A stretch of 62,554 nt of DNA, filler included, from Rhabdomonas costata (taxonomy: Eukaryota): NCBI GenBank assembly GCA_019059605.1. It is 32 parts of 32 records of this genome, joined end to end, with 100 filler letters (N's around TTAATTAATTAA, not from the genome) between each part and the next. Parts side by side here need not be neighbours in the genome. Positions count along the whole stretch, not along the records: positions 27,423 to 29,281 come from JAHMHO010008109.1; 31 more parts are not named here. One strand, 5' to 3'. Every line of letters begins with the position of its first letter. Within the stretch, counting starts at the first letter, position 1. This document shows positions 27,321-50,813 of the stretch, one piece after another. Position numbers and translations under genes: made by a program. The notes beneath the pieces are model-generated. The model was not told the origin of the DNA. It was given only the letters and a program-made list of their open reading frames with translations, and made no database searches.

Positions 27321-27422
27321 GGNNNNNNNNNNNNNNNNNNNNNNNNNNNNNNNNNNNNNNNNNNNNTTAATTAATTAANNNNNNNNNNNNNNNNNNNNNN
27401 NNNNNNNNNNNNNNNNNNNNNN

Positions 27423-29134
27423 GTGTTGGGGTGATCTACAACATCCCAGGGATGGCCATCAGCAGCCCCCCGCTGAACCTCACGACGGAGCTTCTGGTGG
27501 GGATCTACACGGAGCGAGTGACGCAGTGGGACGACCCGCGGATCGTGGCACTGAACCCAGCGATTGCTGGGCAGCTCCCCAGCATGCCGATCACTCGGTT
27601 TGTTCGGAAGGACTCGAGCGGCACGACCAGCGTGTTCACCAGCGCCCTGAAAGCGTTCAGCTCGAACTGGACTGCAGTGGGCACCAGTGTGACGTGGCCG
27701 AACACCAACGGGAAGCTGCAGACGGCCACGGGAAGCTCCGCTGTTGCGATCTCTGTTCTGTGGACTCCGTACAGCATCGGGTACGTGGGCTCGGACACGA
27801 CGATGCAGTACAGCCTGCCCTCTGCCCAGTTCATCACCCCGGGCGGCCAAGTCCAAGCTCTCACCGCGAACAACACCGCGCTGGCTGCCCTGTCGTTTCC
27901 GCTGGGCGCTGACCTTTCTGCGACAATTGTGAACGCGCCGTACCCCGCCTATCCCATCTCTGGTTACGAGTACTTCATCCTGCGGATGTCGTCGATGGGG
28001 TGCGAGAAGGCTTACTGGCTGCAGCGTTTTGTGCAATTCACGTACAGCTCGTCCTCACAGACTCTTGCGATTAGCCTTGGATTCACTCCCACGAAGAGCA
28101 CGGTGATGGAGCAGGTGATGACGAAGCTGAATGAGCTGCGGTGCGTGGACACGGACGGTTCGAAGCCTCTGGTGTACACGCTGAAGCAGCGCTATGACCC
28201 GGACCCCGTGCTGGGTATGAAAGCGAGCTTACAGGCTTTTAGGAAGTGATCGTAAGCCTTTCAATGTCACGTTCCACTATACTCCGCGGTTTTCTCTTTC
28301 CAGGTAGCTCTTCGGTCAACTTGCTGCCGATTGTCCTTCCTTGCGTTGGTGGCCTGTGCTTGATCGGTGTGGCGGCTTACATCCTTAACAGGTCGTGCTC
28401 CTGTAGACCCGTTTTCCATTTGTGTAAGATTGCGTTTCTATGCTGGGTGGCTTTGGGGTTGTTTTGTAATGCCGTCTAGGTGACACTAGATGACGCTATT
28501 GAGGTTTGATGCAGATTTCGGCACAGCTTGCGCATCTGTGTTAGTGTGTGCAGTGCGGGAACATGGCGCGCTTCGCCTCTAGGTCATTTTGTGTGCTGTT
28601 TAGGCCCCTTCCCACAACCTCTTTCGCATTATCAGTGTCGCCACTGCATGAAAGTGGGGGTGAGTTGGGGGGACGGCTCTAAAAGCGTTGGAAGTAGAGA
28701 AGGGAAACACACGCAACCGCCCGGCCCAAAAATTTTCGGATTCGCCCTTTTGGTTGTGCTGATGTCCCCCTTTTTCTTGCCTCAGTCTTGCTATGGCCGT
28801 GCTGTCCAAGGCAGCGTAATTTTCTTACCAAAGCATAGTGTTTCGGACTCAGCGAGAAAAAACCGAATTTTTATATCTGGGATAAACTGGATTCCATGCA
28901 GCGAGAAACGGTTCAAATGAGAGAATTTTTGAGATCGTTCAGATGAAAGAATTTGATTGCACTGATTTTCGCGCTCTCTTCTGACAACTGGTCTGCAATG
29001 AAATCTCAAGGAAGCTGAAGAAGCGCCTGCTGGAGGTCAACCGCCGCCTCAACGACGTCAATGTCGCTGTGGAGCTCAGCGCGGCGATCGCGACATTCGA
29101 TCTGGAGAAGCTGACGTTTCTGGAGGAGATCAAG
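27423..29134 (+). CDS. Single-pass membrane protein with PstS-like phosphate-binding ectodomain, exons <27423-28214, 28304-28391, 29011-29134
   Basis: IYNIPG...LNLT..LLVGIY...TQWDDPRIVALNP...RKDSSGTTSVFTSAL...SIGYV...AYPISGYEY are PstS motifs; spliced to TM LLPIVLPCVGGLCLIGVAAYIL, then RKLKKR and VAVELSAAIATFDLEKLTFLEEIK. Confidence 0.85.
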
Positions 29135-29599
29135 GCAAACCATTGCCCTGTGCTACCCACTCCTGTCATCTCGCTTTCGCTTTTTTTATTGCCGCTCTCC
29201 AAGGGTTTTGGAGTGTTGGAACCAGGGACGGATCGTTGCTGTTCTTCTCTTGTCGCGTTGCAATGGAAGAACAACAACACCNNNNNNNNNNNNNNNNNNN
29301 NNNNNNNNNNNNNNNNNNNNNNNNNTTAATTAATTAANNNNNNNNNNNNNNNNNNNNNNNNNNNNNNNNNNNNNNNNNNNNGGGTTTTGAGGGATTAAGG
29401 GTTTTGGTTCCTTTAATACTCTATGCGTAGAAATTTCGGAGCAGGCTTGAACTGGGAACAGGGGGTGCTGGATTCCTTTTCGGAATATTCTCTTCATAAT
29501 TTTTTTCTCGAATCTTTTGGGTTGGCCAACACCAGCGAGTTATTACACGGGGTTTTTGGGACAGGAAAAAGTCTCCCTTTGTCATCCATGTCCGCACAG

Positions 29600-36790: not shown

Positions 36791-38153
36791 CAGTCTTGCG
36801 GCATTTTACGCTAGGTCCACCGGCCACCCCTATCAGTGAAACCAGCACCACAACCGAGCATGATCTCTCTTCCCCCTCTCTTGGCGGCAACTACTTTTGC
36901 GTGCAAATGAAGTGTTGAAGGGAATTTCCCGAGCTCCATCACGTTTCTGCTTCGTTTCCTGTGCCCGTCGACACGTATTCCACAGTCCACACCCACCCAC
37001 CGTTGTCAGTCCTCGGTCTGTTTCCCCCGTAATCACTTTTCTGCAGCGGCCTAATCACGCCGTGAATTAATTAATAGTGAACTGTATTCAACCACCACTA
37101 CCACGGGGNNNNNNNNNNNNNNNNNNNNNNNNNNNNNNNNNNNNNNNNNNNNTTAATTAATTAANNNNNNNNNNNNNNNNNNNNNNNNNNNNNNNNNNNN
37201 NNNNNNNNGGTGTGGGTGAATAACTGCCCATCCCTTTTACCTGTTAAGGGCCAGGGACGAGCAGTTATTCACTCACATTCCTCACACAAGGGTTATCCAC
37301 ACAGCAACCAGCAGAAAGGGCCCAATCCAAAGACACCCCATAAATCAAGGGAAAACTGAATTTTACGAGGCGGGGCTGTAAACGTTTAGCACCGCAGTTT
37401 TTGACTTTTGCGGAGTTTTTTCTCGTCACTGCTGGACTTTCGCAGACAAATGGGACACGCTTATTCTAGGGACGGAGGGCAGTCCGCGGCCGGAGCGGGC
37501 GGGTGGGCGTTTTCCAATATTATCATACAGAAAGGTTATGACCGACTTGCAGTGCTACACGGTTAACGCCATCCCCAAAAACAGGCAGCACAGTGCGTTC
37601 CAGACGTCAGGCGTCATGGAGGGTATGCTGGAATGACAAAGGGATGCGCACAATAGTCCGGTCATCTGAACAATGACAGCGGACCGACCCAGTCAAAGCA
37701 ATGTGAGTGGAGATGTGGGAGCTCCCGATCCCGCAGACATATCCCTCCACGCGGGACAACAATGCCAGGGAGAGTTGGATCGACCCAAAAAAAATTCAAG
37801 GGCCCCCTTTTCAGGAGAATTAAGACGTCTGGTGGACAACATTCCACTGCGCCCCAAATGCAGGTCCAGCGATACAGCGCCGAATGAGTGGCCTCCCTCC
37901 AACCTTAAAATACATCAGAACCGGGACGAGGCAGTGAATCAGGCTTGATCTGCTCCCCTTGCAAAATTGCTGCCAATAAACTCGCCAGGAATGAGAGTGA
38001 CTTGACTTTAACGAGACTGAATCAAGAGTGCAAATTAAAAAAGAAATTGAGATGAGATCTCTCTGTGTGTGCGTTCCTATGCGTTCATCCAGGAATGGAT
38101 CTGATCCGACTACTTGAGCGGTGGGTAATGTACGGGCGTGTGCGTACGCGGAC

Positions 38154-39066
38154 CATCTCTTGAGTAATCTTCATCTCCGGGGGGAAGGGCTTCGGGTCCT
38201 TCCCCAGGATGTACCCGAAGTCGATGTGGAAGATCCGCCCATCATTGCGGATCATGATGTTATCGAGGTGGCGGTCTCCAATTCCTACCCCGCACGCGAT
38301 TTCCCAAAGGAAGGCGGATGCCAAAGACAAGGGAAGGATTGCTATGCAAGGTCCATTGGTGTCATGTCGGGTCATGTCATTGCCGGGTATGCCTGCTGCA
38401 CTAAGTGAAGAGAAACGCTGGCAGACAGTTACACTTGCAATAGAAACCGGAAGAGATACTATATAAAGTGCAGACTGGTATACTGGAAAAAATAATAAGT
38501 GGGCTAGCAGCAGAACCAAAGGCAAACACGACAAATGCAGCTTAGATACAATAGATAGAAAAAGAATATCAAGTTGTTTGCTGTACTTTAGGTTTCCGAG
38601 CAAAACGGGTGAGAAAATATTGCACCGAAGATCGACCAGCCGAGTATTAGAAATAAGGTGCAAGGAGCCTGGTGCGTTCGACACCCCGCTGAGCTGAGCT
38701 GAGCTCAGCTCTGCTCCAGGAAAGTTCCCAAACAAGCGCTCCACTTCCTCTTTCACACCTTCCATCTCGTACTTACGCGTATGCGAGTGTTTTGAGTGTT
38801 TTGGAATGCATCCAAGTCAGGTTTGTGCTCAAACTACCACCAAACACTACAAAAAACGTCTTTCAGGAAGGGAGTGATGCCTTTTCGGGGGAAAGGGGAA
38901 ACCAACATCATTTGCACTATCTTGCGCGCGATCCGGGCCCAATCCACCACTTTCCCACACACTGACACAAACCTAGCAGGAAGGTGATGACACAATACCC
39001 AGCGCAGCTCTTGATGTAGTTCTCCAGGGCTTCCTGGAAGGCTTCTGCGGAGCGGTTGTGGGTCCG
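38154..39066 (-). CDS. VPS34: Class III phosphatidylinositol 3-kinase catalytic domain, exons 39066-38973 and 38284-38154
   Basis: [61 protein letters not shown]; the DRHLDN and DPKP signatures are Vps34-type. Confidence 0.92.
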
Positions 39067-39882: not shown

Positions 39883-40994
39883 TCAATTCGAAGACGCAGG
39901 GCACCTGCTTCTTCGTGTATCAAGGCTCGAAAGCCAGGCCTTCACCACATTCTCCGACGCCGCCTTTCCGGACCTTTCCCTCCCAACAGGTGCAACAGTG
40001 CCGGCAGTGATGTCTGGGGGTAGGAAGGTGCGGTCCTTCAGAAGGGCAGCCGCCGTCGGTCGCGCCGCCGGGTTCTGCGCCATGCACTGCGAGACAAGCT
40101 CCATGCAAGCCGGGCTGGGGCACGGAGGGGCCCGCCCCGGGGTGCTGAACTTGGCGAGCACTTCACAGAGGCCCGTCCACTGCACCACGGCGAGGTCCTC
40201 AGCGATCAGACTAAGTAATCATGCAGTAGATGCTGCTCATGGGATACCGAAACCAAGAAACGGCAATAAAAATTCCGCTTCAAGTTCAACTGCAGCAAGA
40301 GAGAGAAGGAAGACGTATTTTGAAGGTATTCCAATCCAAGGGGGGTTGGGGGCATTCACATACGCTTCAAGGTCGAACATGTTCACTTCGGCCTGCAAGG
40401 GGTTCTCCTCGACATCTCCTGACAGCACGACGTCCTCCGGGAACAACGGGAAAACCCCCAGGGCACACTCCTGGACACAACAGCATCTGACGTCTTCACC
40501 TTTATTCAGTAGCAAAGGGGTAGGGACGTGGTGTTCCGGCTTGCTTTGCACATTCCGGCACCAACAACAATTTTGGATCATCATAAAGCAACTAGAGCAT
40601 TACTAAACGTCAGGATCCCACACGCAGAAAACTACTACATCGATCAAAAGGTACGAAATGTCAAAAATGGCGCGACTTCAATACCACCTAAGAACACTCC
40701 TTCGGGAAAATAGCGCAGGCGAGACGGACATGAAAGAGAAAAGCGCACCGCACAGGTCAGCCCAAGGCCCCAGATGTCCGCAGCAGCACCGTAAGCCTGA
40801 CCTCGGATCCGCTCCGGGCTCATATAGCACGTCGATCCAACCCATGTCTCAGCGGAGCCATGGCTTCCCAGCACCGTCGAGATCCCGAAGTCCGCGATCT
40901 TCACCGCACCGCTGCGGCTCACTAAGAGGTTCGACGGCTTGACGTCGCGGTGCAGGATGCCCTGCTGGTGCAGGTGGGCCAGCCCACAGCTCAC
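39883..40994 (-). CDS. MAP kinase kinase (STE7-like) catalytic C-lobe, exons 40994-40749, 40470-40364, 40210-~39900
   Basis: HRDVKPSNLL...VKIADFG...TWVGSTCYMSPERI...ADIWGLGLT..ECALG.FP...CMAQNPAARPTAAALL; YMSPERI is a MAP2K hallmark. Confidence 0.88.
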
Positions 40995-41649
40995 CTGTGG
41001 GAAGGGCATCCTGCACCACCCCACNNNNNNNNNNNNNNNNNNNNNNNNNNNNNNNNNNNNNNNNNNNNTTAATTAATTAANNNNNNNNNNNNNNNNNNNN
41101 NNNNNNNNNNNNNNNNNNNNNNNNGTTTGGGCGGATAAGTGAGCCACTAGCACAGCGAAACGAAGCGGCGCCGTTGCGCTGTGCTAGTGGCTCACTTATC
41201 CGTCCAAAGCCTCAGGCACGCTTTGAACCGCCGTTGCTACTTTTCTGCGTCAATTGCCTCGGTCTTCACTGCACCCCAACAAGCACGGCTGCATTCTTTC
41301 TCCTGAATGCCGCACCCACTTTACTGGATACAATTAATTCTAGCATTTCACGGAAAAAATGGAGGAGACATAAGGACTGCAGACGAAGGAATTTGAATTT
41401 GGGTGTGGTAAGGAGGGCCGATTGCTAGCTACGGGAATGGAAAGAAGGAAGTGGGCGGGGAACCAATTTAACGACAAGGGTGGAGGTGCTAGTGAGGAAA
41501 CATAAAAGAAGTGGAAGGAAGTTACGAGTGGGTGAGAGAAGGGCGGTGAGGGGTAAAAGTTAAAGGCGGGCGCGAAGTGAACATTACGCAGGAAAGCAGT
41601 GAGTTGGGAAGGAGAGGCCACCCCACTCACCACCCCCCCGCATGCACAC

Positions 41650-41961
41650 CTCGCACTGCTCCAGGAACGCGGCATTCCGTGTCCACACAACAGCCGCAGA
41701 GAGAAACTGCGGGGTCATCCGCAGCAGTGCGCAGGCCAGGGCCTCGTCGCAATGGAAGGTGCCGTCGTGGGTCCCGATTAGCGTGCACCCCGCGTCGGCG
41801 GGGGGCCGGGAGAGCACCCTGCAGCTCGGCAGAGCGGCAAGGGCCTGGCTCGGGGTGGGGGCCGTGGACATCCTCTCTCTCGCAGTGCGGAGAAAGCGGT
41901 GAGAGCGGATAAAGAAAAACGGGGGAAAGAGCAAAGCCCGTGCAGTGAGGGCAGAAAGCAT
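41650..41961 (-). CDS. MYG1: MYG1 exonuclease, first exon (ATG at 41961 or 41871)
   Basis: IGTHDGTFHCDEALACALLR...VVWTRN is the MYG1/UPF0160 N-terminal signature; donor gtgtgc follows. Confidence 0.9.
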
Positions 41962-44889
41962 GCAACCCCTATGTGAAAATTAACAATGAGAGGTCAAGTA
42001 ATGAAAAGCGTCCCCTCTACCTCAAATCCTCACCTGGTACCCCTCCCCCTCTTCTGTCCCAGCATTCCCATGTCCTTTTCTTTCTTGCCACCACTCCCTC
42101 ATGTTCTGGCAAAGTAGTATTCTTTCTTTCCGGAAATTTCGTTTTTTTTTCTGATTGCGCCTTCCCCTGTGTAAGGTTGTTTCGTTAGTCAATGTGCCCT
42201 TTCTATTTTTCAGTTTCTACGCGTACTGCAAATCATAGCCGCGTCGCTTCCCTCCCATCCAAACTGTAAAAATTGCTGAGCATTAGTTCGGCGACTTTGA
42301 AGAACATGCGAAAATACCAAATCGCCCTATAACTACGTTATGTGTTCTTCAGTGATAAATATGCATCCCATCATCGTGCGTAAATCGTCGCTACACTCAG
42401 CGAATGTAGTCAGGCATGTGGTTTCCAGACAAGATCATGCCCCTTGCAAGGCGGCAACAAAACACAGATTTCATCCAGCCCTTTCGGGATCCCTAAGACA
42501 CCCCCTTCCCCCAATATTATCGCCTTTTGAACAAAAACAAAGTGGCGACACAGTGCCGTGCATTTTTTCTCCAAACAGTTGGAACAGAAGTGTTCGCAAT
42601 GATGCAAGAAATGTTTGCACCCATAATCGTTCCCACCACATATCCCGGGAACCTATCCCCCAAAAGATCCAAGACAAAGGATTCTGGGGCCAACCAGCCA
42701 CAGCTGCCTCTCAGCGATCGTCAAAACTCGTCCACAACAGTAACTTCGGGCATGATAGTGAAAGTGAAAGTCCGTCCCGTACCAAAAATCCGTCTTGCTT
42801 CAAAAACGTGCCGGGGCAAAACCTTTTGCTTGTTCTTCACTCGGTGCAGCCCGTAAGCGAACGAGTTCCCCTCCCCTCCTTCCATATAGAAACCCCAGGC
42901 ACCTGCCTTACAGTGGATTCCGCAGAAAGTAAAGTGATAGAGCGGGAAAAGGCCAGCACATGCCCCGCACGGCCAAAAAAACNNNNNNNNNNNNNNNNNN
43001 NNNNNNNNNNNNNNNNNNNNNNNNNNTTAATTAATTAANNNNNNNNNNNNNNNNNNNNNNNNNNNNNNNNNNNNNNNNNNNNTCTGCGGAGGTGGCCGGG
43101 CCAATCCTGCTGGGCGCCGTCCGAGCGGCAGGTCTGTTTGTGTATGTACCAAAAGTGCCAAGGCGCACCTTGTTTGTGTGGACCTGAGTACCTCTTCCAT
43201 CGGAGGACCTTGCTCGGATATCAATTTCAACGACGGTGGGAGCTCACACTTGGCGGTAGTATAATTGTATGGGGTCACCCCGGAAATGATGGAGTGGTTC
43301 ATTTACTTCAGCTTAAATGTTTCTATTCTTCTTTGGGTGACTTCCGCATCGTCCCTCTGGACCGTAGCCGGACCGGAGGTCTGGCACAGGTATCGCAAGT
43401 GAGCTGGCAGGTTGTGGCCCATATTTGGATGGATAGATGGAAGGATGCGATGGTGGTACTCCTGAATTGAGTTTACTGGATTCCGTTCCTGAATATAAAA
43501 AAACAGAAGTTTTCTATTGGAAAACTATGCGAAGTGATGCTGCCAGAGGTTGGGAACCGTCGTTCGTTTTGTCCCCAGCCTTGTCGTGGGTTAGTCTTTT
43601 TGTCCACACCAATGGAACGCTGCCTTTGCACGCAGACCTATTTCCGAGAGGTTCAGAGCCCTCCTCGTCCTCCTCAGTTCCGCTGCCTCGCCGGACCCGA
43701 CGCGCCAATGCGCCGTAATCCCTCCTCACTGCACTTCATCTAACCTCATCCGTTTGCATCGCATCGTTTCCGCGCGTTTAGACACCACCTGAGGGGAAAG
43801 TCCCCACGAAGGGCCCATCAAAAACGCCTGTGTTTTCTTTTCGTGAAGGAGACGTGGCTTCCGTTTTTCTCTGTGTGTATGTTCGTGTTCTCGCTATTAT
43901 ATTGTAGTTGTAATGTGGGCGAGCCTTCAGCCTCCCATGACTGGAGTCTGAGTCGGCACAGTTTCCACGTGGCCCCCTCCCCCTCGGGATTATCTGCTTG
44001 GCCCCCCGACCTCTGCGCCAGAAAGTGTATTGCCAAGGATCGCAAAAATGAAAGAGCACTTTTTCTCCAACGGCTCTGAACTTCTTCAGGTCTTCCCAAA
44101 ACCCATCCATGGTGCTTGCGTGAATGTTTTGTCGCAGGCTGATTCTCCATCTGAGTGGTTCACGTTCAAATGCACCTGTCCCCCCCACACACACACGAGG
44201 TTTTTATAGCCTAACCCCCCTTAGCCATGGCGATCGACGAATGGTGGGATCTGTGCTGTCTTTTCATGGCTAGGGCAGAAGGTCCCATCGTGCTTCAGCT
44301 ATTTTGAAGTCCTCCAGTAAGACAAAGGAGGAAATATGTAGCCGATGTGCAGTTGGAGGAGGGCAATGCATCCGAGGGTGGCGCCCACCCCAGTCAAGCA
44401 AACAGTAACGCACGATTAGGATTACAAGGCACTGCGACGCGGCCAAGTGGTTCTCCTGAGAGGGGGATACTTTTCTCCCTGAGTCTTCTTCTCCTCGCTG
44501 CCGCCCCCCTCACCCTGTCCCACCCAGGGAATGCCGGAAAGGCGGGCTCCTGTGTGTCTGCGTACTTGTCTGTTGGATTTCCTCCGTGCCTCACCTCTCG
44601 CTTTCTTCTTTTTTGCTTGCCCAACCACCGGAGTTGCCGTGGTCTGGCATGGTTTCCCTGGAAGCTTCGTGCGTTTGGGGTCTGGCGCCAAGCCCGTGTA
44701 AAAGCCCCCTTGGTTTTCGCCTTTTTTAAAGTGTTTGGAGGGTGGTGCGTTCGTGCTTTTTTCCCTGCTTGTCTATCCGACTCATGCCAGCGGTGGTTTC
44801 GTGATGGACCTTCTGGACCTATGTGCCTAGAAGAGGTGCCCTCGTGTCTGTTTGCAGATTTTCTGAAGCCGTTGCAAACTGAATAGCAC

Positions 44890-46580: not shown

Positions 46581-46999
46581 CTAAGGCACCCGTCCCGCCA
46601 ACATACGGTGCTCTGAAGGTTGGCGGGTAACAGAAAATTGCCTTACTTAGAAACCGTGAGGTAAACCATGCCAGCACTTTCAATGACTTTATCTTTGTGT
46701 CAGGGGGTATGGTTTATTTTCCACGTTCTCACCCCCCCCTCCCCACTTCCATTGGCCCAACACGCCCACACAACGTGCAGCGCGTCCGTGGTCCAGAGTT
46801 TCCCACCGGACGCTTGAGCTCAATATGCAGGCCTGCAAAGGTCCTTTTGCAAAGTGCCTTTCTGAGTCTGAGGATACAATTTCCGTGTGGTTACTGANNN
46901 NNNNNNNNNNNNNNNNNNNNNNNNNNNNNNNNNNNNNNNNNTTAATTAATTAANNNNNNNNNNNNNNNNNNNNNNNNNNNNNNNNNNNNNNNNNNNNAT

Positions 47000-48855
47000 T
47001 GGGGCGTCTCATGAAGTACTCCGCAGGGCGGTGGTGGTTGTCGGCCGACTTGATGACCATATTCGTCGCCAGGACGACAGCCCTCTTCGAATGATGCAGC
47101 AGCTTCTGGAACGCCTCGGGATTGGCTCCAAGGAGAAGCTGGTGTTTCTTTCACTGAAGCCGGAGCTGTACGACCGCAACGTGATGGAAGCCAGCGAGGA
47201 CAGTGGCGAGGCCAGTGCAACTTTGAACAGCTACTTTGCAGCCATTCAGAGCCAGGATCAGGAGATGATCTCAGCTCATGTCCCCCAACAGCTGCAGCGT
47301 GCTTATTTGATTGGTATCGGTGCGGCGGTTGACTGCTTGGTGACAACCATTGGAGACCACCTTTCAGCGAACATCAGCACCACACTTATTGCCCTAGAGA
47401 ACCACTTCAGGTCTGTTCAGGATCGTGTGCATGCATTGGCTGCTTTGCAAGATATCACGGTTGTCCGTAAGCAGGCTGAAGACTTTGTCTCACTATTCTG
47501 CTCCTATCTCGCTGCTTTGGCGCGGTGGGACATGGCTGATTTCCTGCAGAACGTGCCCATCTTCGAGCCCGGAGCGGTGACAGCAGCGATTGGCTTGCCC
47601 GTGGATGAGCTTGCGTTGGTGTTTGACGAGGAAATATCGCGCTTTGGGATGGAGGACGCAGCGTTTGTGAAAGCCTTCCGAGAGCTCGAGGCTGGCATTG
47701 GGCAAGCGCTTCGTGCCCAGCTCAGCCTCCCGCTATGCGGTGGGTCCGCACTCCTTCGCTTGCTTCGTGTATGGAGTTATGTTGTGCTGAAGACCAGGTG
47801 CAAGACTTTCACCTGGGCGGACATGGCACGGAAAGGCTGTATGACCTCCTTGGACGGGTCTCGGTGCTGGTCCCTGGAGTGGTGCTTAAAGAAGATGATC
47901 GAGGAGTGCAGCGTGTTTTTTGAGACCACTGTTTCAGAGGTGTGCAGCTGGGCACGCAAGCTCTTTGCCTCTCATGCGGAGGTGGGCCGCCGCAAGATGC
48001 ATGAGTTGAGCCGGCTTCTAGCGGAAACCCCTAACCTTCGAAAACAGATTGAGCACCAGCTCTGCAGCTACTATGATCATTTCCTTTCGAGTTGTACGGC
48101 GAAGGCCAAGGCCGCCATCGTGAACAACGTGGGTGTTCACTTCTCCTCACTGAAGCTGGACGCTCCTTTTGCAATGCTTCGGCTTCTGTGCTCGGTGAAG
48201 CTGCCTGACACTCTCTTTGCCTCCCAAAGTGGATCCAAAGGGGTCAGCACCGAAAAGCTGAGTATTGGGGTTGAGGGCCTTCCAGATGGGGTTTCATCCG
48301 TGGAAAAAGCTGTTCGCACTGCCCTGAAGTCGGTGGTCGGGCTGGATGCTGGTGTCGCTGACTTTGTGCTGCGTGCGGCGCGGTTCAGCGGGGCCCGTTC
48401 TCGGGCTTCGGTGGTGGATTTGTTTCATTTTTGTACCACGCTGGCGGAGCGTGTGACGACGGAGGACTTTGCCATGGGGGAGGGGCTGAAGCTTGACCGA
48501 ATCTTTGACACAGACCTCGAGCACCGACAGGATGACATTAACGCCCTCGTGAGTGGGCTAACCTACCTGCACTATGGCATGGTCTTGGGCAACGCCATGA
48601 ACGCCTTTGACCGCGAGCTCGAACAGCCCGTGAAGCAGCTTCATGACCGGGTCAAGCGCGAGCTCCTGGGCATTCTAAGCCACCGCGAGATGAACGACGC
48701 TGCTCTGAGGGAAATCATTGTTCAGGACTCCCAGGAGCGCCTCAGGAGCCTTGAGGAGCAGCGCGCCGCCATTGCGGAGAACAAGGAGGCGCAGGAGCAC
48801 CTCCTGGGTGCGGCCCGTGAACTCGGGCTTCCCGCCCTGATGGGCACCCCCAACC
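47000..48855 (+). CDS. Dynamin-related protein, probably DRP5/Dlp-like (end of GTPase domain, stalk, coiled coil); intronless over the whole contig
   Basis: More than 600 open codons; VVVGRLD at a G4-like position, LVFLSL, IGIGAAVDCL, LCGGSALLRLLRVW (compare DRP5 LYGGAQxxRxxxEF) and a C-terminal coiled coil. Confidence 0.55.
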
Positions 48856-49270: not shown

Positions 49271-50813
49271 TTAGAAGTGCCCGCTCTTGCGGAAGTCCGA
49301 GCCAGCGTACGGCGCACCCAGCTCGGCCTCAATGCGGAGCAGCTGGTTGTACCTGTGAATCGGGGAAAGGGAGGGGGGCAGGCGACGATGGTGGGCCACC
49401 TCCTCCGTTCCCGTGGAGCCCGTAACTATGCCACGGTCCAGCGCTCTCACACACATGCACGTACGCACATGAGCACCCAAAAGGTTGGCATTCTTCACTT
49501 CTGAGGTTTTGGCATCCGTTGGGAATGGATGGGTATGTGCAGGGGGGGGGGAAGGCGCGGGTAGGCAGGCCATCAACAGCAGAACTGGTGCCCTTGACCT
49601 TCTAGCAGCAGCATCCACTTGCAAACGAACAACCCCCGAACTTTAATTAAAATCAAACCCATGGGAAGCGAACACACACATGCATGCACACACATAGGGA
49701 CGCATACACACAGATACTTTGCGATACGCTCCCCGCGGCATGGCGCGCCCGTCTTCAGGTGGCCCGTGCCCAGCGCAACCGTGAGGTCCGCAATGAACGT
49801 GTCCTCCGTCTCTCCAGAGCGGTGCGAGACGAACACCCCCCAGTGGTTGGTGCGGCACAGCTGGAAGGCGTCAATGGACTCGCTGATCGACCCGATCTGG
49901 TTCACCTGCGGCGGGGGAAAACGGCACACGGGGAATAGGGCCAATGGGAGGGGGACTTCTGTGGAGTGCACAAGACTGGGAAGGAACAAGGGCCGTGCGC
50001 GCGCCCACATACACATACACATACACAGAGGGAACCCGAAGCGAAACTCGGGACCAACGCGGGTGTCGGGTAAGGGCAAAGCCCCCCCCAAAAAAAAACA
50101 CAACGACACAGCTCCATTCCCCCACACCTCTTCAACCGTCAACCATGCGGAATCACATAAACAGCAAAGACCTCGAGAAGTAAGGCCATACAAAAGCGTC
50201 GTGCTTGATTTCCTTTTTTGAGGTAAGCATACCTTTAGCAGCATCGCGTTCGTGGCCTTCTTCTCCAGTCCCTTCGCGACAATCTTGGGGTTGGTGCAGT
50301 ACAGGTCGTCACCGACAATCTCGACCTTCTCCCCGATCCGCGAGGTGATCTGGGCATGGCCTGTCGAAGCATAAGGGAGAGGGGGGTGGTGGCACGAGGG
50401 GCAGACCACAGCACCGCAGAGACCGTTTTTGAGTGGGGCAATGCGCAATGGCGCCTCAGGCTCGGCGTGTGCGCAGAAGGAGCTTGCCCACTTGGCTCCC
50501 ACGGGGCTTCGCCTCACCATTCCACACCTGGTCAAATCAGGGAGCTTTGGAATACCGCACAAAAACGGAAGCTTGACATCGACATTCTCCGGGAACAGAT
50601 GGCATGTGCCCGCCGCATACATCGAAAAAAGAGGGATGCCCAAGGGAGCTGGTCGGGAGGTTTACCGTCAAAGTCGTTCTCATCAAACGGGTCCTCCAGA
50701 AGCACCAAGGGGTACTTCTTGGACATCTCCACCCAGAAGTCCACAAGCTGCGCACGCGTCAGCCGCCGCTTCGGGTCCTGCTTCTCCTTGGGCACCTTGA
50801 AGTCCAAGTTGTA
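49271..50813 (-). CDS. ENO: Enolase, C-terminal half; exons 50813-50666, 50360-50233, 49905-49718, 49352-49271 (stop)
   Basis: [11 protein letters not shown]...[10 protein letters not shown]...LLKVNQIGS...[10 protein letters not shown]...[21 protein letters not shown]; three GT-AG introns. Confidence 0.97.

Follow-up and report, generated by a model that had tools for sequence, protein, structure and literature searches.

The window analysed here, a stretch of 62,554 nucleotides (filler included) from the euglenid Rhabdomonas costata (NCBI GenBank assembly GCA_019059605.1), contains at positions 27423-29281 a contig with a fragment of a receptor gene, in which a PstS-type phosphate-binding domain is followed in frame by a single transmembrane helix and a cytoplasmic tail. 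We consider it likely, though well short of certain, that this contig is the middle of a gene for a euglenid type I membrane receptor with a PstS ectodomain and, as its predicted output domain, a pseudo-cyclase. This reading is carried by the conserved C-lobe phosphate site of the ectodomain and by the tail, which is shared with euglenid and diplonemid receptors whose cyclase-like domain has lost the canonical catalytic residues.

Exon structure of the receptor gene fragment

The whole window consists of about 32 contigs of ~1.86 kb joined via N44-TTAATTAATTAA-N44 spacers, so the gene neighbourhood is unreadable across the spacers. The receptor gene fragment lies on a single 1.86-kb contig of a fragmented eukaryotic assembly, between unrelated flanks. 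Its 5' boundary is an N44-TTAATTAATTAA-N44 spacer at 27323-27422, beyond which the neighbour is an unrelated contig, and its 3' boundary is the spacer at 29282-29381.

Three exons were recognised on the plus strand. Exon 1 (27425-28214), open at its 5' end and ending in phase 1, encodes the C-terminal ~60% of a PstS domain (PBP_like_2). Its frame, open from 27425, reads VGVIYNIPG...WDDPRIVALNP...VRKDSSGTT...YSIGYVG...PAYPISGYEY..., and also includes three N-x-S/T sequons, a Cys pair and a stalk (...LKQRYDPDPVLG). Intron 1 (28215-28303; 89 nt, GTATGA...TTCCAG, GC 0.45) has its GT at 28215 and its AG at 28302-28303. Exon 2 (28304-28391), which ends in phase 2, encodes the single transmembrane helix as SSSVN-LLPIVLPCVGGLCLIGVAAYIL-N; the best 19-residue Kyte-Doolittle mean of the helix LLPIVLPCVGGLCLIGVAAYIL was 2.4, and it lies ~30 residues from the PstS domain. 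Intron 2 (28392-29010; 619 nt, GTCGTG...CTCAAG, GC 0.48) has its GT at 28392 and its AG at 29009-29010. Exon 3 (29011-29134) encodes RKLKKRLLEVNRRLNDVNVAVELSAAIATFDLEKLTFLEEIK, in which the basic stop-transfer stretch RKLKKR is followed by the juxtamembrane helix NDVNVAVELSAAIATFDLEKLTFLEEIK; the exon runs RKLKKR...VAVELSAAIATFDLEKLTFLEEIK. Both introns are of the GT-AG type and preserve the reading frame, and the joined exons have a GC content at third codon positions (GC3) of 0.805, compared with an intron GC of 0.45-0.48. The PstS motifs, GT-AG introns, transmembrane helix, RKLKKR stretch and cytoplasmic helix described in the earlier note were all present, in place and in frame.

The region 29135-29281 is probably the start of intron 3, and the contig stops at 29281. 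Its border reads GCAAAC: after ...EEIK there is no GT at the edge of exon 3, the nearest lying 15 nt downstream, which leaves the 3' end of exon 3 uncertain. An extension of exon 3 to that GT, as ...EEIKANHCP, was rejected, as it is without the family-invariant Pro and Gln. No continuation of the family profile was found in any of the three frames of 29135-29281; since these last 147 nt are unlike the downstream sequence of the relatives, the next exon should lie off the contig. A search of 1656 six-frame open reading frames (ORFs) of at least 25 aa gave no piece of the family on the other contigs of the window. The contig had no Rfam match, and its repeats were short and at chance level only. 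Minus-strand ORFs opposite exon 1 were set aside as presumed chance frames against a strongly coding strand (GC3 0.805).

Conservation of the C-lobe phosphate-binding site

The product of exon 1 matched Pfam PBP_like_2 (PF12849) with 59.9 bits (cut-off 27, E 4.4e-16) over profile positions 101-266 of 267, and it matched solved PstS chains in the PDB at E 3e-17 to 5e-17. As the contig begins mid-domain, at profile position 101, the N-lobe lies beyond its 5' end. The transmembrane exon and the cytoplasmic tail come next in frame, which sets this protein apart from PstS as a soluble or lipid-anchored subunit; the Pfam match and the exons that follow it bear out the proposal that PstS serves here as the ectodomain of a single-pass receptor.

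The earlier note had suggested an alignment with E. coli PstS as a check of the ligand residues. In a HMMER alignment to E. coli PstS (1ixh), VRKDSSGTT aligned with R134-R135-A136-D137-G138-S139-G140-T141-S142, and the five C-lobe phosphate-site residues R135, D137, S139, G140 and T141 were all conserved. In E. coli numbering we take R135, S139, G140 and T141 to be phosphate ligands and D137 to be the partner of R135; the N-lobe ligands are presumably T10, F11 (main chain), S38 and D56. The nearest proxy for the N-terminal part is the R. costata protein P0101, a 229-aa fragment with 50% identity over 127 aa. It starts with a signal-peptide-like stretch (judged by eye), directly followed by one PstS domain, and it has T10, S38, R135, S139, G140 and T141, with Glu at D56 and D137. 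Going by P0101, the alignment suggests for the gene in the window just one PstS domain, with a functional anion site.

When exon 1 was searched exhaustively with HMMER, 4442 proteins were matched at E<=0.001, among which there was no full-length relative more than 50% identical. The best match of the PstS domain was P0076 of Entosiphon sulcatum (170 bits, 35% over 342 aa), which has a similar stalk. In one scan of metagenomes with exon 1, none of the 79 pattern matches was confirmed by tblastn.

A euglenid and diplonemid receptor family with a common juxtamembrane tail

A word-indexed search for longer relatives gave P0013 and P0014, which aligned with the transmembrane helix and tail of the window. 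With the cytoplasmic part of P0014 as the query, 58 proteins were matched, of which 28 were Euglena gracilis transcripts and 27 E. longa (judged by names, with one per kind checked). Common to the 58 proteins is the motif FSNDNVAQECAAAIARFDLEAVAWL, immediately after the single membrane helix. The corresponding family signature, (N)VAxExxxAIAxFDLxxxxxL after a single transmembrane helix, is present in the window. The transmembrane helix and tail of the window scored 29 bits against a profile of the cytoplasmic region of the euglenid relatives, and exon 3 alone scored 20.7 bits, compared with 4.8 for the best of 2000 shuffles. The closest tail was that of R. costata RCo052831 (P0086), with 55% identity over 67 aa and no gap across the exon 2/3 junction, and a tail of the window's type was found in three further R. 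costata proteins. Membership of the window's gene in this receptor family, judged by the tail sequence, is well supported.

Members of the family include E. gracilis EG_transcript_1076, E. longa GGOE01013413 and R. costata RCo052831 and RCo052836, together with the diplonemid proteins P0013 (Namystynia) and P0163 (Diplonema ambulator). Downstream of the tail, the relatives have a helical module (xPNKIQ...IPDQLL), a disordered linker, a cyclase-like domain and C-terminal EWMYEL helices. The window resembles this unnamed family in its transmembrane helix and juxtamembrane signature and in having an ectodomain of the solute-binding-protein type. It differs in the ectodomain layout: typical members have two PstS domains, of which the membrane-proximal one is degenerate, whereas the proximal domain in the window is canonical and resembles that of single-PstS proteins. 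Among the two-PstS members, 18 of the 43 membrane-distal domains had the R...SG(T/S) motif, and none of the 11 membrane-proximal domains detected had it. The copy in the window would accordingly be one that joins a P0076-like, phosphate-competent domain to the tail of the dead-cyclase family.

Other ectodomains were also observed on this cytoplasmic module. In P0044 the same module is joined to an ectodomain of animal haem peroxidase and DOMON, and in P0036, P0053 and P0061 it stands on Bmp solute-binding domains; NCD3G/TNFR-like Cys-rich stretches occur in both P0036 and P0061, the latter having Ephrin-receptor-like repeats as well.

A cyclase-like cytoplasmic domain without the catalytic set

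The earlier note took the tail for a linker ahead of a class III cyclase-type domain, and such a domain was found in the relatives by both profile and Foldseek searches. In Pfam scans of 13 members, Guanylate_cyc (PF00211) was matched above its cut-off (21.9) only by P0034, with 24.6 bits; P0025 gave 19.3 bits, and none of the rest gave a match. In a profile of 23 full-length members, the N-terminal part matched PstS structures, and positions ~885-1030 matched class III cyclases (CyaB 3r5g, E 3.2e-8). A profile of the cyclase-like region matched CyaB 3r5g (E 2.1e-11), Cya2 2w01 (E 1.9e-7) and human soluble cyclase (E 5.8e-7). A comparison of the family by hhalign with only three genuine protist cyclase domains gave a weak result (probability 4.8%, E 0.0084), so the cyclase likeness was judged instead from the profile matches in the PDB and from the fold comparison.

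For the fold comparison, an AlphaFold2 model of the 665-aa member P0035 was made from a 40-sequence alignment (mean predicted local distance difference test score, pLDDT, 68.7). In this model, residues ~395-570 had a pLDDT mostly >90 and were followed by a confident helical domain at 584-645, while the post-membrane helices at 217-324 were moderately confident and 324-393 formed a disordered linker. Foldseek with the confident core gave 3r5g as the best match (E 3.2e-10, TM-score 0.78 on the target) among 185 matches at E<=0.001. On these profile and model comparisons, the cytoplasmic domain of the family is a class III cyclase fold.

The catalytic sites were mapped from the PDB-profile alignments and known motifs, and residues were counted in 67 family sequences. 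We take the canonical class III set to be two metal-binding Asp residues, a substrate Lys (or Glu), a base-specifying Asp/Thr, and a transition-state Asn and Arg. The results showed that the first metal Asp was present in 0 of 58 sequences (Arg in 21, Lys in 13, Glu in 7 and others in 17), the substrate Lys in 8 of 57 and the second metal Asp in 34 of 57 (Glu in 10). The base-specifying Asp/Thr site was occupied by Phe in 53/53, and the transition-state Asn and Arg were found in 1/52 and 10/51, respectively. None of the 67 family sequences had the full catalytic set. At the first three sites, P0224, the R. costata protein with the closest tail that reaches the cyclase-like domain, has Asn (or Cys, if the gap is placed differently), then Ser and Glu. 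Both metal positions are occupied by Glu in a subgroup of seven Euglena proteins (P0024, P0026, P0029-P0032 and P0025), of which five (P0024, P0026 and P0029-P0031) retain the transition-state Arg, with the stretches CAWLxAEL..., GATIERVGxET... and ...LATRLV. The domain is thus predicted to be one that probably does not function as a cyclase. As the canonical catalytic residues are gone, a cAMP output is unlikely, and the coupling to cAMP put forward in the earlier note loses ground: in the family that shares the tail, the first metal Asp, the transition-state Asn and the base-specifying site all speak against it.

A homodimer prediction with two copies of P0035 392-650 scored 0.74, compared with 0.00 for the best of three controls. 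In the calibration, the score mark was reached by 21 of 30 microbial one-chain pairs and 0 of 23 microbial single chains, and by 17 of 29 eukaryotic pairs and 0 of 30 eukaryotic single chains. The dimer runs had at least 95% contact agreement and a partner pLDDT of at least 71, and were made without a supplied alignment. Since solved cyclase dimers exist, this pass may reflect memory and shows likeness only.

The tail had also been compared with a degenerate HAMP linker. This part of the proposal found no backing: HAMP (PF00672) had no Pfam match in the 13 family members at E<=0.1, and HAMP structures were absent from the 46 PDB matches (E<=1) of the full-length family profile, in which the juxtamembrane segment was not searched alone. 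The P0035 model has helix-turn-helices after the membrane, at moderate confidence only, and from this form the juxtamembrane module may have a structural likeness to HAMP.

Comparison with known PstS proteins and receptor cyclases

By sequence, the domain in the window belongs to the same fold family as bacterial PstS (E. coli 1ixh, M. tuberculosis PstS-1 1pc3), with the five C-lobe residues conserved; a comparison of the N-lobes falls outside the contig. Bacterial PstS is soluble or lipid-anchored and serves the Pst ATP-binding cassette (ABC) transporter, whereas the domain in the window has a C-terminal transmembrane helix and a cytoplasmic tail, is encoded by a spliced eukaryotic gene and is without a known link to PstCAB.

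Genuine cyclases follow a PstS domain and a transmembrane helix in Entosiphon P0076 (Guanylate_cyc 73 bits), Andalucia godoyi ANDGO_00956 (P0012, 80 bits), Willaertia magna P0169 (75 bits) and P0108 (74 bits). Among these, the Discoba receptors P0076, P0012 and P0169 are like the window in having a single PstS domain, one transmembrane helix and a similar stalk (LKERYEPSP versus LKQRYDPDP). They differ in that a canonical cyclase begins ~25 residues past the membrane (in P0076) and the AIAxFDL helix is absent, whereas the window has this helix.

The trypanosomatid receptor adenylate cyclases (ESAG4/GRESAG4) are likewise single-pass proteins of Euglenozoa that combine a periplasmic-binding-protein ectodomain with a cytoplasmic domain of the class III cyclase type. 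The binding protein in their case is of type I (LIVBP-like), and the cyclase is active. The ectodomain in the window is of another type: it is PBP_like_2, and Pfam gave no Peripla_BP or ANF_receptor match at E<=1. At E<=1, the family profile matched no trypanosome cyclase structure in the PDB.

Of the best 150 relatives, 61 were scanned for domain architecture, namely P0077 and all 60 with a length of 450 aa or more. Beyond the solute-binding-protein families nothing was found in 32 of them; 12 had 7tm_3, six had Guanylate_cyc (three of them also with a kinase), three had TRP-like regions, three had Ephrin-receptor-like repeats only and two had a kinase only, and ANF_receptor, PARP and Cu_amine_oxidN1 were found in one each. 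PstS was joined in the longer relatives to TKL kinases, kinase plus cyclase, cyclase, class C G-protein-coupled receptor (GPCR) helices and RGS domains, and the holders of such fusions included Andalucia godoyi, Willaertia magna, Fabomonas tropica, Chromosphaera perkinsii and Naegleria lovaniensis. The class C GPCRs and receptor kinases of protists and fungi have a similar PstS-type sensor, with a seven-helix or kinase output in place of the single helix and cyclase-like domain. For both Spizellomyces (PMC3251606) and Plasmodiophora (PMC4815078), published work notes PBP_like_2 together with 7tm_3, on class C GPCR-like proteins. A separate observation concerns P0121, a 1360-aa relative with two PstS-type stretches and a PARP catalytic domain.

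Proposed mechanism and alternative explanations

If the contig is the middle of a receptor gene with a pseudo-cyclase output, its relatives suggest that the upstream part would encode a signal peptide and the PstS N-lobe, while the downstream part would lead from a short helical module, through a disordered linker that is acidic and rich in Ser, to a dimeric pseudo-cyclase and on to a helical domain conserved at the C-terminus. Outside the cell, phosphate or a similar oxyanion would close the PstS clamshell, and this closure would be passed on by the membrane helix and its juxtamembrane neighbour as a change in the geometry of the receptor dimer. The cyclase-like dimer, itself dead, would then signal without making cAMP or cGMP, as a ligand-controlled scaffold or as a regulator of partners, for example genuine cyclases. 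We infer the ligand (phosphate or an oxyanion), the downstream action and the gene's own output domain from sequence comparison. A broader proposal, which we advance tentatively as possible rather than probable, is that a large undescribed class of euglenid and diplonemid receptors runs from PstS or Bmp through one transmembrane helix and a lineage-specific juxtamembrane module to a dead cyclase dimer, and that the copy in the window is a true cell-surface sensor of external phosphate.

Several points weigh against the pseudo-cyclase receptor. The contig ends 147 nt past exon 3, at 29281, short of any output domain, and the earlier note had rightly placed that domain beyond it. The exon joins are predicted from the reading frame and from ungapped homology over the junctions, and the transcript end is a prediction too. 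The canonical membrane-proximal PstS domain appears to depart from the usual family layout, and its best match, P0076, bears a genuine cyclase domain (73 bits). The family counts given above include near-identical isoforms and are dominated by two Euglena species; beyond Euglena, the only proteins to reach the cyclase-like part are a truncated one from R. costata and a diplonemid one that aligns poorly. Loss of the canonical residues predicts, short of proof, a loss of cyclase activity, and the subgroup with Glu at both metal positions, which may have residual activity, would be the part of the family likeliest to keep some metal or nucleotide binding.

Three other explanations were weighed. 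We regard as unlikely that the gene encodes an active receptor cyclase, whose unseen downstream domain would be a competent class III enzyme with cAMP synthesis controlled by phosphate binding. Proteins with PstS, a transmembrane helix and a genuine cyclase do occur in related protists (P0076, P0012, P0169 and P0108), the PstS domain in the window matches P0076 best, and in the window's tail subfamily only one truncated relative reaches the cyclase-like part. However, the four genuine cyclases have a short linker, and 0 of the 4 were among the hits of the family cytoplasmic profile at E<=1e-3. Among sequences with the juxtamembrane signature that reach the first site, none of the 58 has the metal Asp, and Phe stands at the base-specifying site in every one of the 53; the truncated relative P0224 itself has Asn, Ser and Glu at the first three catalytic sites. 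It also seems rather improbable that the receptor is one for a ligand other than phosphate, with the PstS scaffold retuned to another small anion or metabolite. Among the PstS domains of the family, 25 of the 43 distal ones and all 11 proximal ones have lost the R...SG(T/S) motif, and the same module also stands on Bmp/NCD3G and haem-peroxidase/DOMON ectodomains; this variety of ectodomains and the loss of the motif suggest that ligand specificity has diversified in the family. The copy in the window, by contrast, keeps R135, D137, S139, G140 and T141, and its proxy P0101 keeps T10 and S38.

The remaining explanation, to which we give a small chance, is that the transcript stops shortly past the juxtamembrane helix, so that the product would bind phosphate at the membrane without signalling or would act as a decoy, or else that the locus is a piece of a pseudogene from a multigene family. 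No canonical GT donor follows exon 3 and the frame continues without homology, although euglenids have introns without GT-AG borders. The R. costata models P0086, P0225 and P0226 end 30-60 residues past the membrane, but they do so within conserved sequence and their sibling P0224 runs on into the cyclase-like domain, so they were apparently truncated by assembly. Dead copies are expected because the family is large; against a dead copy here, a GC3 of 0.805 and intact frames over three exons argue for a live gene, and the phosphate-site residues and the juxtamembrane motif are conserved. Compared with these explanations, a receptor with a PstS ectodomain and a pseudo-cyclase output is the one we favour.

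Relation to published work and biological significance

The earlier note had allowed for the architecture being already characterised. This proved half true: PstS-transmembrane-cyclase proteins are present in public databases (Andalucia, Entosiphon, Willaertia), but no paper describing them was found. Full-text literature searches found no paper on a PstS-cyclase or on the receptor family in Euglenozoa. The Euglena genome paper (Ebenezer 2019, PMC6366073), in its available parts, reports nucleotidyl-cyclase III families with BLUF, HAMP and cache1 domains; these parts contain no PstS, and the terms PBP, PstS, PF12849 and phosphate-binding have 0 occurrences in five supplementary files, with Figure S5 outside them. 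Likewise, the PstS-transmembrane-cyclase architecture is not described in the available parts of PMC7719234, PMC10445921 and the Stentor kinome preprint (10.1101/168187). The euglenozoan receptor family is apparently undescribed.

A single-pass receptor whose PstS domain has an intact anion site in its C-lobe is a testable candidate for an external phosphate sensor, and the group in which it occurs counts the biotechnology alga Euglena and the abundant marine diplonemids among its members. To our knowledge, phosphate sensing at the cell surface of eukaryotic microbes is poorly understood, and the sensing known to us is mostly intracellular or via transporters. The family also offers a natural series, from the active PstS-cyclases of Entosiphon, Andalucia and Willaertia to the predicted dead-cyclase receptors of Euglena, Rhabdomonas and diplonemids, which would be useful for the role of pseudo-cyclases. 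This picture at the family level is based on public transcriptome proteins, the window itself holding a gene fragment only.

Remaining contigs of the window

On another contig, at 46998-48854 on the plus strand, one frame is open over the whole length, encoding 619 aa with no stop and no visible intron. This frame had no Pfam match at E<=1e-5 and appeared non-repetitive by eye. Ordinary pieces of eukaryotic genes were found on the minus strand at 49576-50661 (enolase C-terminal domain), 40647-41024 (protein kinase), 38088-38816 (PI3/PI4 kinase) and 41587-41979 (MYG1-type exonuclease).

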